From the NCBI GenBank assembly GCA_023247345.1, contig JAHFGR010000003.1, forward strand, positions 1 to 29,129: 29,129 nucleotides of DNA, in the 5' to 3' direction. The position numbers were made by a program, and so were the translations under genes. The notes under the pieces are model-generated. The model was not told where the DNA came from, ran no database searches, and was given only the letters and a program-made list of their open reading frames with translations. Numbering within the stretch: the first letter of the stretch is position 1; the number at the start of each line of letters is the position of its first letter. This document shows positions 11,098 through 19,891 of the stretch, one piece after another. This DNA is from Candidatus Micrarchaeota archaeon. Lineage in GTDB: Archaea > Micrarchaeota > Micrarchaeia > Anstonellales > Bilamarchaeaceae.

Positions 11098-11126
11098 GTT
11101 TTCTTTGATATATGCTGCAAAGCGGC

Positions 11127-11261
11127 CATAAGCAATAGGCAGGATGGCATAAGCGAGAATGGTTGTAGGCAGTATGGTTGAGAGGTAGGAAGCAGTAAGC
11201 CTAACGCATATACCCTAAACCCTACGCCCTATGGCCTAAAGCTTATAGTTTATCGCTTTAA
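11127..11261. repeat. Degenerate heptanucleotide repeat array, purine-rich half then complementary half
   Basis: CATAAGC/AATAGGC/../CATAAGC/../TGTAGGC followed by nine in-register heptads GCCTAAC GCATATA CCCTAAA CCCTACG CCCTATG GCCTAAA GCTTATA GTTTATC GCTTTAA (11199-11261). Confidence 0.7.
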
Positions 11262-11262
11262 T

Positions 11263-12354
11263 TTGGTGATCCCATTGCCAGTTGAAACTGTATTTGAAGG
11301 TAAAGTAAGATATATGCAAATAATTGATAAAGATGGAAATACTGACGAGAATCTTGATCCTAAATTATCAAAAGAAATGCTAAGAAGAATGTATATCATG
11401 ATGCTTGTTACTCGAATGTTCGATGACAAGGCGCTTAAGCTCCAAAGGCAAGGAAGAGTCTATACTTATCCTCCTTGTCTAGGGCAAGAAGCAGCCCAAA
11501 TCGGAAGTATTGCTGCGCTTGAAGAAGCTGATTGGATGTTTCCCAGCTATCGCGAGCATGGCTGTTATTTATGGCGGGGGGCAGAAATGAAATGGATGCT
11601 TGCCTACCTTATGGGTAGCGAGCTCGGAATGAAAATTCCAGAAGGCAAAAATAATTTTCTTGTTGCCATTCCAATTGCAACGCAAACACTACATGCTGTT
11701 GGTGCAGCATGGGCAGCCAAAATTTTGGGCCATAAAGTTGCAAGTATTGTTTATTTTGGCGACGGAGCAACGAGTGAGGGCGATTTTCACGAAGCAATGA
11801 ATTTTGCCGGTGTATTCAAAACTCCGACAGTATTTTTCAATCAGAACAATCAATGGGCAATCAGTGTGCCGCGTAAAAAGCAGACAGCATCTCAAACAAT
11901 TGCGCAAAAAGCGCTTGCGTATGGTTTTGAAGGCGTGCAAGTGGATGGTAATGATGTTCTTGCTGTTTATAGGGCAACAAAAGAAGCAATAGATAAAGCG
12001 CATCGCGGCGAAGGTCCTACGCTTATCGAAGCAATAACTTATCGTCGCAGCATGCATACAACTGCAGATGATCCTACAAAATATCGCGATGCTGCTGAAG
12101 TTAAATCTTGGGAAGAAAAAGATCCAATTAAAAGATTCAAAATTTATTTAGAGCGCAATGGATATTGGAGCGATGAACTAGAACAGAAAACAGTTGAGCG
12201 TGCAACAAGCGAAATAGAAAAAGCAATAGAAGAAGCAGAAGCATTGAAGCTTGATAATCCAGAAGATTTATTCATGTATACTTATTCAAAAATGCCACCT
12301 CATTTAGTTGAGCAGATGAATGAGTTGATGGAATATTTGAAAGAGAAACAATGA
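11263..12354 (+). CDS. pdhA: 2-oxoacid (pyruvate-type) dehydrogenase E1 alpha subunit
   Basis: GQEAAQIG, YREHG, TPP motif GDGATSEGDFHEAMNFA...QNNQWAIS, YRRSMHTTADD. No ATG near the start; TTG 11275 after GGTGAT (11265-11270) is the likely start. Substrate (pyruvate vs branched-chain) is not determinable by eye. Confidence 0.93.
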   Translation: MVIPLPVETVFEGKVRYMQIIDKDGNTDENLDPKLSKEMLRRMYIMMLVTRMFDDKALKLQRQGRVYTYPPCLGQEAAQIGSIAALEEADWMFPSYREHGCYLWRGAEMKWMLAYLMGSELGMKIPEGKNNFLVAIPIATQTLHAVGAAWAAKILGHKVASIVYFGDGATSEGDFHEAMNFAGVFKTPTVFFNQNNQWAISVPRKKQTASQTIAQKALAYGFEGVQVDGNDVLAVYRATKEAIDKAHRGEGPTLIEAITYRRSMHTTADDPTKYRDAAEVKSWEEKDPIKRFKIYLERNGYWSDELEQKTVERATSEIEKAIEEAEALKLDNPEDLFMYTYSKMPPHLVEQMNELMEYLKEKQ

Positions 12355-12395
12355 GCCATGAGGCTGTAGGCCATGAACAATGGGTCGTGAGCAAT
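12351..12395. repeat. Short heptamer-periodic tract at the pdhA stop
   Basis: ATGAGCC ATGAGGC TGTAGGC CATGAAC AATGGGT CGTGAGC; TGTAGGC also occurs in the 11127 array. Confidence 0.5.
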
Positions 12396-12932
12396 ATGAA
12401 AACACTCGGAAGAAAATTTTTAATTAAAGAAGCATTAGCGCCTTTAGAAAGGAAATACACTGAGCAAGCTTCACTAAGAAAAATGCGCGCGCTTAAAGAT
12501 TTTCAAGATCGAACTTTAGTTGATCGAATGCCTTTACGCGCTGAATTGGAGCATCCAATAATTGCAACGCGATATTGGCGGAACGAAAGAAAAGTTACTA
12601 GAAACGTTAGGTCGTTAGATTCACTAACTCCATTTTCTGCATCCCAAATAACAAACTCTATTCTCAGGAGCGAAGCGCTCGATGAAGTATACTTAAATCA
12701 AACAAAGTTTATGGCAAATATTTTGTCCTCTCCGATAATCTCATTTGGTGCGATGTTTACTGTATTTGCAGCCATATTCGAAAGAGCAGCATTTTGGAGA
12801 GCAGCATCATTTGCACTTGTGGGTTTAATATCAAGAGAATTAATAGTTAATAGAGCACATTGGAGATTATTAGAAGCATCGCAAGAGCGCTTAAGAGAAA
12901 CAATGATTGCAAGAGAAGAACGCAGCCCTTAA
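12396..12932 (+). CDS. Hypothetical membrane protein, paralog 1 (EHP-I-RYW-NE motif, C-terminal hydrophobic hairpin)
   Basis: ATG 12396 (MKTLGRK) aligns with the paralog start MNSLARK at 13600; the 15-aa extension from 12351 is the repeat tract. Confidence 0.75.
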   Translation: MKTLGRKFLIKEALAPLERKYTEQASLRKMRALKDFQDRTLVDRMPLRAELEHPIIATRYWRNERKVTRNVRSLDSLTPFSASQITNSILRSEALDEVYLNQTKFMANILSSPIISFGAMFTVFAAIFERAAFWRAASFALVGLISRELIVNRAHWRLLEASQERLRETMIAREERSP

Positions 12933-12984
12933 TTTAGATAGATTTTTAATGTCTAAAAATTAATAGTCATATGGTGAGATCACG

Positions 12985-13278
12985 ATGTTAACAAAAAACC
13001 AGATAATAAAAACACTTGAAAAGCATAAACCGGAGATAAAAACATACGGTGTCAAAAAATTAGGTGTCTTTGGTTCCTTTGGCAAAGCAAAACAGAATGA
13101 AAAAAGTGATATAGATTTTCTTGTCGAATTCGATGAACCAACTTTTGATAAGTATATGGATCTAAAATTCTTTTTGGAAAGACTATTTAAGAGAAAAGTT
13201 GATCTGGTTGTTGAGGAAACCTTAAAACCCGCATTGCAATATGTTAAGGAAGAGGCGATTTATGTCAAGGGAGTATAA
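12985..13278 (+). CDS. mntA: Minimal nucleotidyltransferase (MNT) antitoxin
   Basis: GVFGSF......SDIDFLVEF and RKVDLV motifs; GGTGAG SD upstream. Confidence 0.92.
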   Translation: MLTKNQIIKTLEKHKPEIKTYGVKKLGVFGSFGKAKQNEKSDIDFLVEFDEPTFDKYMDLKFFLERLFKRKVDLVVEETLKPALQYVKEEAIYVKGV

Positions 13279-13603
13279 ACTTTATATTGATGATATTTTG
13301 CGATCTATAGAAAAAATAGAAAACTACACCAAAAATATGTCTTATGAAGATTTTATAAAAAGTGACATGTCAATTGATGCGGTAATTAGAAATTTAGAAA
13401 TAATCGGTGAGGCGTCTAAAAAGATTCCAATAGATATAAAAAAGAGATATTCAGAAGTAGAATGGTCCAAAATCACTGGTTTAAGGGATATTTTGATTCA
13501 TGAATATTTTGGGGTTAATTCTAAAATATTATGGGACGTTATTGCTAATAAGATCCCTAAACTAAAAATTTCAATAAAAAAAATGTCGGAGGAATTAAGA
13601 TGA
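13262..13603 (+). CDS. hepT: HEPN (DUF86) ribonuclease toxin
   Basis: DAVIRNLEIIGEASK and the RX4H motif RDILIH followed by EY; ATG 13262 overlaps the MNT 3' end (track start TTG 13241 less likely). Confidence 0.92.
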   Translation: MSREYKLYIDDILRSIEKIENYTKNMSYEDFIKSDMSIDAVIRNLEIIGEASKKIPIDIKKRYSEVEWSKITGLRDILIHEYFGVNSKILWDVIANKIPKLKISIKKMSEELR

Positions 13604-14121
13604 ATTCACTAGCAAGAAAAGTTTTATTTCGCGAAGCATTTAAGCCGTTGGAAGCAAGGTACCTCGGCAATAAACTAAAAACAGCAGCACTTCAAGCATT
13701 TCGAGATCGAGTAATTGTTGATGGCAAACCATTTCGTGCTAGTGTCGAGCATCCTGTAATTTCTGCTAGATATTGGTTAAATGAGACTAACTTAATATTT
13801 ATGCAAAATATGAAAGTATTTAGAAGTTTAAAGCCGGTTGTTTCATCTGAAATGGAAGTGCAATTCGATCGCCTTTATGCTGTTACAACTCCTTTGGCAG
13901 CTTTAGATAGGTGTATGAAGAAGATCGAGTTGGCTTATCTAACCTTATTTTCACTCGCAATTCTTTCATTGAGTTCGGCTCCTGAAAAAAATTATCTGTC
14001 TATGACAACATCACTTCTTGTTTCTTATGGTGGTCTTCGGTTAGGTTTTTCTTTAATTAGATTAACTATAAAAGAAGATCTTATTGCAGACTTTACAGAT
14101 TGTGATGTTGAAATTAATTAG
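13600..14121 (+). CDS. Hypothetical membrane protein, paralog 2
   Basis: Shares RK.L..EA..PLE..Y and DR..VD..P.RA..EHP.I..RYW.NE with 12396..12932; ATGA overlap with the HEPN stop. Confidence 0.75.
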   Translation: MNSLARKVLFREAFKPLEARYLGNKLKTAALQAFRDRVIVDGKPFRASVEHPVISARYWLNETNLIFMQNMKVFRSLKPVVSSEMEVQFDRLYAVTTPLAALDRCMKKIELAYLTLFSLAILSLSSAPEKNYLSMTTSLLVSYGGLRLGFSLIRLTIKEDLIADFTDCDVEIN

Positions 14122-14129
14122 GTGAACAT

Positions 14130-15107
14130 ATGGCAAAATGGAATTTAGTCGAATCTATTAACGCAACGCTTTCCCAAGAAATGGAATTAAACGATAAAAT
14201 CATAGTAATGGGCGAGGATGTTGGCGTTGATGGCGGAGTATTTCGTGTTACCGATGGTTTGCTTAAGAAATTCGGAGAAAACCGAGTATTCGATACGCCT
14301 CTCGCGGAAAGCGCAATTATCGGAACAGCAATTGGCATGGCCATATACGGCTTAAAACCAGTTACAGAAGTTCAATTTGAAGGTTTTATATTTCCAGCTT
14401 ATGAACAGATTGTATCCCATGTAGCGCGTATTCGCAATCGCTCGCGAGGAAGGTACAAGTGCCCAATAATTCTAAGAGCGCCATATGGTGGCGGAGTAAG
14501 AGCATTAGAACATCATAGCGAAGCGCCAGAAACATTGTACGCGCATGTGCCAGGATTAACAGTTGTTATTCCTTCTGGCCCTCACGATGCAAAAGGTCTG
14601 CTAGCAAATGCATTGCAAAGCGAGGATCCGGTAATATTCTTCGAACCAAAGCGTATCTACCGTGCATTCAAAGAAGAAGTGCCAGAAGAAAGGTATACCA
14701 TCCCATTCGGCCAGGCAAAAATAGTCCAAGAAGGTCATGACGTTACTATAGTTACATACGGCGCAATGGTTCGCGTAAGCATGGAAGCTGCAGAGTTGCT
14801 AAAGGAGAAGAACATCTCCTGTGAAATCGTTGATCTGCGAACAATTTCGCCACTAGACACAGAAACCGTTATAAGTTCGGTCAGGAAAACCGGACGATGC
14901 GTTGTAGTGCATGAAGCCCCGCGCAATTTAGGTGTAGGTGCAGAAGTTATTGCAAGAATAAATGAAAAGGCATTGCTTGACCTCAAGGCGCCAGTTAAGC
15001 GTGTTACTGCCTATGATGTTGTTACTCCGTTGCCAAAATTAGAAGACTTCCATTTCCCGAATGCTGAAAAAGTAGTTAAAGCAGTTAATTATGTTATGGG
15101 GTTCTAA
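14130..15107 (+). CDS. pdhB: 2-oxoacid dehydrogenase E1 beta subunit
   Basis: MGEDVG..GGVFRVTDGL, FDTPLAESAIIG, HHSEAPE, VDLRTISPLD; GGTGA SD. Confidence 0.95.
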   Translation: MAKWNLVESINATLSQEMELNDKIIVMGEDVGVDGGVFRVTDGLLKKFGENRVFDTPLAESAIIGTAIGMAIYGLKPVTEVQFEGFIFPAYEQIVSHVARIRNRSRGRYKCPIILRAPYGGGVRALEHHSEAPETLYAHVPGLTVVIPSGPHDAKGLLANALQSEDPVIFFEPKRIYRAFKEEVPEERYTIPFGQAKIVQEGHDVTIVTYGAMVRVSMEAAELLKEKNISCEIVDLRTISPLDTETVISSVRKTGRCVVVHEAPRNLGVGAEVIARINEKALLDLKAPVKRVTAYDVVTPLPKLEDFHFPNAEKVVKAVNYVMGF

Positions 15108-18565: not shown

Positions 18566-19891
18566 ATGGCTTACGAATTTAAACTTCCAGACTTAGGCGA
18601 AGGTATTCATGAAGGGGAGATTAAGAAATGGCTAGTAAAAGAAGGAGATAAAGTCAAATCAGATCAGCCTATTGCCGAGCTCGAGACAGATAAAGCAGTA
18701 GTTGAAATGCCATCTCCGAAAGGCGGCGTTGTGCTTAAATTATTTGGCAAAGAAGGAGAGAAAATAAAAGTAGGTCAAGTTCTTATTGTTATCGGGCAAG
18801 AAGGCGAAAAATATGAACAGAGGCAGGAAGCAATAGGCAGTAAGCAAGAAGCAATAGGTAGGAAGCATGAAGCTCCTCAAGCCTCAAGCCTACCGCCTAA
18901 ACCAGATGGCCCCAAGTCTCAGACTGAAATAACCATCCCTCAAGAAACTTCTACCGGCAGAGCAATGGCAACCCCATTTGTTCGCAAACTGGCGCGTGAA
19001 CTTGGCGTTGATATTGAAAAAATAAAAGGTACAGGTGAGCATGGAAGAATAAGCGAACAAGATATAAGAAATGCATCAAAAGGCGGATATGATTTCATAA
19101 AGCAGGAAGCAGTAGGCAGTAAGCAAGAAGGGCCTACAATCTATGACCTACCGCCTAAACCAGTTCAACGCATCCCAATAATTATCGAAGGTGAAGTTGA
19201 ACGCTTACCATTTCGCGGGGTTCGCAGAACAGTTGCAGAGCATATGGTTACGAGCATGCAAACTGCTATGCATGTAACGCACGTAGATGAAATTGATGTT
19301 AGCGATTTAGTTCGCATACGCGAGCAGGAAAAAGCATACGCTGAGCAAAAAGGTGTTAAACTAACTTATTTGCCATTTATCATCAAGGCAATTGTTGCTG
19401 CATTGCGCCAATTTCCGGTTTTTAACTCTAGCTTGGATGAAGAGAAAAGCGAGATGGTACTTAAGAAATACTATAATATCGGAATAGCAGTTGATACAGA
19501 AGATGGATTAATTGTTCCTGTGCTAAAAAATGCAGACAAAAAAACAATTATTAATCTTGGGAAAGAAATCGCAGAGCTAGCAGAAAAAGCACGCTCGCGA
19601 AAGCTCACGCTTGACGAGTTGCGAGGCGGTACATTTACAATTACCAACATTGGCAGCATAGGTGGAGTATTCGCAACACCTATTATCAATTATCCTGAAG
19701 TCGCGATCCTTGGCATATATCGAATGCAAGACAAAGTCGCAGTTGTAGAAGATAAAGCAGAGATAAGAAAAATGATGAATATTTCTTTGACATTTGATCA
19801 TCGGGTAATTGATGGTGCGCTTGCTGCGAGATTTGCTGTAACAATAAAAAAGCATTTGGAAGATCCTGGATTGCTGCTTGTGGACGAATAA
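18566..19891 (+). CDS. pdhC: Dihydrolipoamide acyltransferase E2
   Basis: One lipoyl domain (ETDKAVVEMPSP), peripheral subunit-binding domain (ATPFVRKLARELGVDI...GTGEHGRI), catalytic DHRVIDG; GGTGA SD. Confidence 0.96.
   Translation: MAYEFKLPDLGEGIHEGEIKKWLVKEGDKVKSDQPIAELETDKAVVEMPSPKGGVVLKLFGKEGEKIKVGQVLIVIGQEGEKYEQRQEAIGSKQEAIGRKHEAPQASSLPPKPDGPKSQTEITIPQETSTGRAMATPFVRKLARELGVDIEKIKGTGEHGRISEQDIRNASKGGYDFIKQEAVGSKQEGPTIYDLPPKPVQRIPIIIEGEVERLPFRGVRRTVAEHMVTSMQTAMHVTHVDEIDVSDLVRIREQEKAYAEQKGVKLTYLPFIIKAIVAALRQFPVFNSSLDEEKSEMVLKKYYNIGIAVDTEDGLIVPVLKNADKKTIINLGKEIAELAEKARSRKLTLDELRGGTFTITNIGSIGGVFATPIINYPEVAILGIYRMQDKVAVVEDKAEIRKMMNISLTFDHRVIDGALAARFAVTIKKHLEDPGLLLVDE
18820..18904. repeat. 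In-frame heptamer repeat element in E2 linker 1
   Basis: GAGGCAG GAAGCAA TAGGCAG TAAGCAA GAAGCAA TAGGTAG GAAGCAT GAAGCTC then GCCTCAA GCCTACC GCCTAAA; encodes RQEAIGSKQEAIGRKHEA...LPPKP. Confidence 0.8.
19099..19163. repeat. In-frame heptamer repeat element in E2 linker 2
   Basis: AAAGCAG GAAGCAG TAGGCAG TAAGCAA then GCCTACA ATCTATG ACCTACC GCCTAAA; shares GCAGGAAGCARTAGGCAGTAAGCAAGAAG and CCTACCGCCTAAACCAG with the linker 1 copy. Confidence 0.8.

Follow-up and report, generated by a model that had tools for sequence, protein, structure and literature searches.

Where does the DNA that encodes the two inter-domain linkers of an archaeal dihydrolipoamide acyltransferase (E2) come from, when both are read from the same kind of heptameric repeat? 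The gene lies at 18566-19891 on the plus strand of the window, by which we mean the whole stretch of 29,129 nucleotides analysed here, from a Candidatus Micrarchaeota metagenome-assembled genome (MAG; G000 in the following). It is intact and encodes 441 residues, with Pfam matches to Biotin_lipoyl (residues 4-76), E3_binding (135-168) and 2-oxoacid_dh (209-438), and its translation contains both the lipoyl-lysine motif ETDKA and the catalytic motif DHRVIDG (within FDHRVIDGA); the product thus has the lipoyl domain with its lipoyl-lysine, the peripheral subunit-binding domain and the acyltransferase domain with DHRxxDG that are expected of a 2-oxoacid dehydrogenase E2. Upstream in the window lie pdhA (11263-12354) and pdhB (14130-15107), separated in G000 by four genes (12396-14121). 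In the congener G001, pdhB starts about 60 nt past the pdhA stop, so that the four genes represent an insertion into the operon; a short heptad array sits at the junction of this insertion.

E2 linkers are normally rich in alanine and proline. Here, linker 1 (residues 85-113) and linker 2 (residues 178-199) are both occupied by heptad arrays of one layout: a purine arm, (nnnRRGC)n, is followed by a complementary arm, (GCCTAnn)n. The purine arm of linker 1 (18818-18873, plus strand) consists of eight heptads in phase (CAGAGGC, AGGAAGC, AATAGGC, AGTAAGC, AAGAAGC, AATAGGT, AGGAAGC, ATGAAGC), which include a tandem duplication of 21 nt (three heptads) and are read as QRQEAIGSKQEAIGRKHEA; its pyrimidine arm (18874-18905, plus strand) has units of the type GCCTCAA, GCCTACC and GCCTAAA and is read as PQASSLPPKP. 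The element in linker 2 (19097-19163, plus strand) has four to five purine heptads (ATAAAGC, AGGAAGC, AGTAGGC and AGTAAGC at 19097-19124), then GCCTACA..ACCTACC GCCTAAA up to 19163, and is read as KQEAVGSKQEGPTIYDLPPKP. Lag-7 self-identity exceeds that of codon shuffles in linkers 1 and 2 (z=4.5 and z=3.3, respectively). In linker 1, TRF reports periods of 7 and 21 at 18819-18873, the period-21 row with 2.4 copies and 86% matches, in agreement with an initial sequence-only reading in which three heptads form a 21-nt unit encoding the seven residues EAIGSKQ. That reading had also placed the same element on both sides of the subunit-binding domain, and this is seen in the heptad arms as well as in a direct repeat common to the two linkers (64 nt, 77% identity, spacing 258 nt), within which a 29-nt block is 97% identical and the 17-nt end, CCTACCGCCTAAACCAG, is identical.

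The linkers are not alone in the genome. When an array is defined as RRGC in at least four of five consecutive units at a fixed period, the MAG (1.29 Mb in 211 contigs, 37.6% G+C, 75% completeness) contains 39 of them at period 7, whereas periods 5, 6, 8, 9 and 10 give 0-1. By position, the unit is composed of A/T, A/G, T/G, A, R, G and C; all units share RRGC only, positions 1-3 being variable, and G-tracts do not occur in runs. Besides these there is a second type of unit, nnTGRGC, with its partner GCYCAnn. In full elements, the purine arm is joined to the pyrimidine arm by a well-conserved turn, which reads RGCAGTAAGCCCTAAACC in a dozen copies. Linker 1 matches, over 93 nt (75% identity, E=1e-13), a copy on contig C124 that lies where an unrelated gene starts, and with the 39 arrays this supports the proposal that the linker DNA belongs to a dispersed family of self-complementary heptad repeats.

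Two further members lie in the window, at the non-coding sites where related heptads had been noticed. The copy recorded at 11127 proves to be a complete element with both arms, in the pdhA leader (11118-11246, plus strand), placed between a TATA-like box, TTTAAATA, and a Shine-Dalgarno-like site, GGTGAT; it is 74% identical over 122 nt to a copy on contig C85 and 82% identical over 57 nt to one on C41. The copy recorded at 12351 is a short array of the TGRGC type (12349-12395, plus strand), with six to seven heptads at the pdhA stop and the start of the next ORF. That all four copies in the 29 kb lie at dehydrogenase genes is thus literally true; it is uninformative, since the window holds the pyruvate dehydrogenase cluster and copies occur elsewhere at unrelated genes, and the tie between heptad arrays and dehydrogenase genes is coincidental.

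A repeat that spreads in intergenic DNA had been envisaged, and non-coding copies do exist, in leaders and at gene ends; the family is not mainly intergenic, however, since roughly one in two of the arrays detected is translated, and in every such case the purine arm comes first on the sense strand. In the reverse orientation, TAG occurs in nearly every unit of the leading arm, and the reverse strand would therefore be closed in all three frames wherever at least three consecutive units carry it. Stop-type heptads are not significantly rarer in translated than in untranslated arrays (32% vs 41%, p=0.28). In-frame copies are found in E2 (twice), in an internal segment of the ribosomal protein uL3, in the C-terminal tail of GrpE, in the tail of an NTPase_1 protein, and at the N-termini of a 399-aa orphan protein, of a family with a GXGXG motif, and of many members of one expanded gene family (family A), which account for most of the translated arrays. 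A palindromic repeat that lies between genes is thus also read in frame within several conserved genes that are unrelated to one another, as in the palindromic elements of Rickettsia. In uL3 (G000:C38:659-1648; L066:160-1140, minus strand), the heptads encode an insertion of 16-17 residues, VVTGDKPEAISNKPQASTIQP, which is found at the same place in G001 and is absent from the second congener, G002, from G015, which belongs to another genus, and from G005 and G009. In GrpE, the array supplies ten extra codons in G000, and a TGA within a unit cuts the G001 version short. For annotation, this means that arrays displace the start and stop codons of genes (the GrpE tail, the family A N-termini) and mimic low-complexity protein regions.

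Family A comprises orphan genes of about 280-350 residues, often in tandem, with the motifs RFGRYxPE..VRQPDVTGQSY and ALVVEHPDFE. G000 has about 70 such genes (78 ORF hits, on contigs C14, C36, C124, C179, C108, C47 and others; for example L028:199-1233), G001 about 13, and other relatives give 1-9 matches. Their N-termini are hypervariable heptad-encoded stretches of 0-60 residues. No match is found in Pfam or PHROG, and the relatives in the protein atlas are hypothetical DPANN proteins only. We considered family A as a mobilising enzyme or transposase and rejected this for want of evidence and of a recognisable domain; the copies are 45-80% identical and therefore paralogues, not copies of recent transposition. 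Phase variation by 7-nt slippage at the N-termini was likewise rejected, as only about 2 of the roughly 70 genes are out of frame. The second, unrelated family, with a weak GXGXG-motif match (L036:199-978 on C41; C152:753-1616), has its 5' module in common with family A: a promoter-like AT box, the ATG, the heptad hairpin, a small conserved stem, AGCGGCTAATAGCCGCT, and the peptide AAxSRFxxYKPE. Such sharing suggests an exchange of the module between gene families. Elsewhere in the MAG, an 841-aa ORF (G000:C155:815-3337) resembles, from its translation, an SRP54/FtsY-type GTPase with an intein-like insert after the GxxGxGK P-loop, starting with C and ending with VHN before T.

The taxonomic range of the repeat is narrow. 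Among 401 genomes of the phylum, five consecutive RRGC units at period 7 occur 12 times in G000, 15 times in G001 and 5 times in G015, compared with 0-2 times in each of the 398 others; at period 8, the control gives no match in G000 and G001 and one match each in 2 of 41 relatives. In G034, from another family of the same order, the backwards control, CGRR every 7 nt, matches eight times and almost nowhere else, which hints at a possible separate heptad repeat family in that genome.

The E2 orthologues follow this range, and their alignment bears out the heptad linkers as lineage-specific. The proteins of G002, G005 and G009 have long linkers rich in Ala, Pro, Gln, Thr and Val, and those of G011 and G020 have linkers rich in Glu and Lys, in all five cases with no lag-7 signal. 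G002, although of the same genus, has no heptad arrays, much longer E2 linkers and a G+C content of 47% in the fetched loci (L010, L062, L075 and others), against 37% in G000 and G001. In the E2 of G001, which is 80% identical as a protein, the peptide of linker 1 differs, yet the DNA retains a 7-nt periodicity (z=3.8), and linker 2 keeps part of the G000 array (AGTAAGCAAGAGGCAATAAGCCAACCTCC). Because both G001 linkers are periodic at 7 nt, the E2 arrays are probably ancestral to the two genomes and not recent, and would have been rewritten since. An orthologue that kept the peptide while its synonymous sites were randomised, in a genome with no other copies, would speak for the protein and against the repeat; the peptide is not kept, and the copies are many. 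On a metagenome contig (P0004), an E2 of 63% identity has as its linker 1 GAVGHEPGATRHESAGPK, a peptide of 7-aa periodicity that, judged from the peptide alone, resembles arrays of the TGRGC type.

How the arrays come, go and change can be followed between G000 and G001. The 129-nt element of the pdhA leader is cleanly absent from G001 and G002 in empty-site alignments, and an element of about 65 nt on contig C185 is absent from the orthologous G001 site. Read from these alignments, both copies are clean insertions relative to G001, the C185 case being strictly also compatible with a deletion in G001. We looked for target duplications or a mobilising enzyme, as had been proposed, and found neither: there is no target-site duplication at the two empty sites, and a search of the 75% complete MAG gave no match to PF01797 (Y1) or PF07282 (TnpB). 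At four sites, the uL3 loop, the GrpE stop, the C85 leader and the pdhA stop, arrays are present in both genomes; at the last of these G001 has a related short array, CATGAGC AGTGGGC AATGGAC, in the same place. The uL3 arrays have conserved flanks and equal length, and their columns in GC phase are identical at 17 of 18 positions, the others at 18 of 45, the phase being kept across all three codon positions; over three compared arms, 36 of 38 GC-phase columns are identical, compared with 39 of 93 others (42%; Fisher p=4e-9), in a setting where the DNA that flanks orthologous arrays is about 80% identical. At the C39 locus, the match to G001 consists of 28 nt of array, with no flanks. Base composition was rejected as a cause of the shift from G to A (TGRGC in G001 to TARGC in G000), both genomes having about 37% G+C and both unit types.

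These observations are probably best explained by the E2 linkers being copies of a lineage-specific dispersed repeat, which has spread by copying, is turned over locally and is tolerated where it lies. The repeat is imperfectly palindromic, each arm being a tandem series of degenerate 7-nt units in which GC is invariant (nnKARGC on one arm, GCYTAnn on the other). Copies would spread by copy-and-paste and would then turn over locally, by slippage in steps of 7 nt (21 nt in translated copies, as in the frame-preserving tandem duplication within linker 1) and by conversion, arm to arm or array to array. They would survive only where extra sequence is harmless: in leaders, at gene ends and in parts of proteins for which a fixed fold is not required, among them termini, a variable uL3 loop and the E2 inter-domain linkers. 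Ribosomes translating E2 would read through the repeat, the purine arm giving a peptide rich in E, A, G, S, K and Q and the pyrimidine arm one rich in P, K, S, L and Y; either type may give the swinging lipoyl and subunit-binding domains their flexible tether. The mode of spread and the neutrality of the repeat for E2 are inferences. The suggestion that the repeat was tolerated or co-opted as a linker thus stands in its first half, the evidence stopping short of co-option.

The near-perfect retention of the GC phase, together with compensatory changes in the arms, could instead reflect selection on the nucleic acid. The arrays would then be working elements with which the protein has to live, either as hairpins in RNA or single-stranded DNA or as phased binding arrays for a trans-acting factor that recognises one GC per 7 nt; we consider this unlikely, but it accounts for several features of the family. 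The GC phase is kept while the other columns diverge. Between G000 and G001, both partners have changed in 5 of the 26 pairs predicted for the C85 leader hairpin and in 3 of the 15 predicted for the uL3 array, as in TAAGC.GCTTA to TGAGC.GCTCA, and no pair is broken; slid controls give 0-1 such pairs. With two sequences per site, this is at most suggestive of pairing kept by compensatory changes. The strands also differ. The description of the repeat as self-complementary holds mainly for the strand opposite the coding one: for linker 1 (18815-18912), that strand folds at -40.7 kcal/mol (z=-4.5), against -24.2 kcal/mol (z=-1.1) for the coding strand, and on the coding strand the E2 and pdhA-leader elements do not exceed shuffles in fold stability (z -0.2 to -1.5). 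In 13 of 16 elements, folding favours the complementary strand, with a mean gain of 6 kcal/mol, A.C mismatches on the sense strand becoming G.U pairs on the other. Placement at the 5' and 3' ends of transcripts, as in bacterial heptameric repeats (PMC4692102), points the same way. Set against this, the comparison involves two genomes, and the structures are derived from the very sequences that are compared; conversion between arms, together with slippage, could preserve both complementarity and core motif in arrays that have no function; for several elements (for example L028, z=-0.4), neither strand shows an excess of folding; and a range of 3 in 401 genomes is more in keeping with a selfish element than with a conserved regulator.

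The spread and local turnover of a tolerated repeat also accommodate the particular likeness of the two linkers. This likeness could in principle be a mere intragenic duplication, unrelated to the element elsewhere in the genome, for the linkers are each other's best partial match through the 29-nt and 17-nt blocks described above; both belong, however, to a family with at least 39 genomic arrays, the whole 93 nt of linker 1 find a match at an unrelated locus, and identical heptads occur in non-coding DNA, so that a purely intragenic origin is very improbable. The near-identity of the blocks does point to intragenic copying between linker 2 and linker 1 in G000, and a 21-nt duplication would have lengthened linker 1; such duplication or conversion between linkers is likely one step within the turnover of the family. 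That the heptapeptide EAIGSKQ, of which linker 1 has 2.4 copies and linker 2 one, was selected at the protein level with the DNA periodicity as a by-product is scarcely credible, as the nearest orthologue, G001, lacks the peptide in linker 1 at 80% identity, the signal lies at 7 nt and not just at 21 nt (lag-7 identity 0.42), and the same DNA units also occur untranslated.

Among known systems, the heptad arrays behave like the Rickettsia palindromic elements (RPEs), for which in-frame palindromic repeats in housekeeping genes are a hallmark (review PMC10969869). As in RPEs, small palindromes are dispersed between genes and in frame in unrelated housekeeping genes, where they add peptide at tolerant sites (PMC10969869). 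RPE units, however, measure about 100-150 bp, conform to a family consensus and have no internal 7-nt periodicity, whereas the arms described here are degenerate heptad arrays that change fast in length and sequence, in an archaeal host; the resemblance is one of behaviour only, and a relationship in sequence is not expected. The second likeness is to the heptameric repeats of bacteria, namely the cyanobacterial STRR, the GGGGA(C/T)T repeats of Nostoc and the GGGAATC repeats of Xanthomonas; a dispersed excess near gene ends is described for Xanthomonas and Nostoc (Rehm et al. 2015; PMC4692102). The specific excess of dispersed tandem 7-nt units, the variable unit number, the concentration no more than about 50 bp from the start or stop of a gene and the strand preference are common to both (PMC4692102). 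The bacterial units differ in being near-perfect and G-rich, with proposed G-quadruplexes, and in being under-represented in coding DNA (PMC4692102); here, the period-7 excess is present but units are neither near-identical nor G-rich and quadruplex-capable, having only the RRGC core in common, with arms in inverted pairs, no G-tracts and about half of the arrays translated. The third is to MITEs and REP elements, which are also small, hairpin-forming, multi-copy and devoid of coding capacity, and vary in presence between close relatives; in contrast to these, the heptad elements have no target-site duplication at the two empty sites, no terminal inverted repeats other than the arms and no Y1 (RAYT/IS200) or TnpB gene found in the MAG. 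A literature search for such heptad arrays in archaea found no description. The family appears to represent, in an archaeon, a class of repeats whose outline is known from bacteria.

It is possible, but distinctly unlikely, that the GC-every-7-nt arrays are a selected nucleic-acid signal, such as a strand-specific hairpin or a phased binding array, that overlaps the coding sequence of essential genes (uL3, E2, GrpE) and spreads without a known transposase, which would make them an undescribed class of mobile structured repeat; the conserved GC phase and the compensatory changes could raise the importance of the finding in this sense. The pair G000/G001, in which the periodic GC and the complementarity of the arms are kept while the rest changes, offers a tractable case for deciding whether such repeats are selfish or are read by the cellular machinery. 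In-frame insertions of the RPE kind are now extended to DPANN archaea. In an ultrasmall archaeon whose genome is streamlined, repeats can provide the DNA for the flexible tethers of a central metabolic enzyme, as for a loop in a ribosomal protein, and can go on rewriting it, so that part of what appears as the evolution of protein linkers is the dynamics of repeat DNA.
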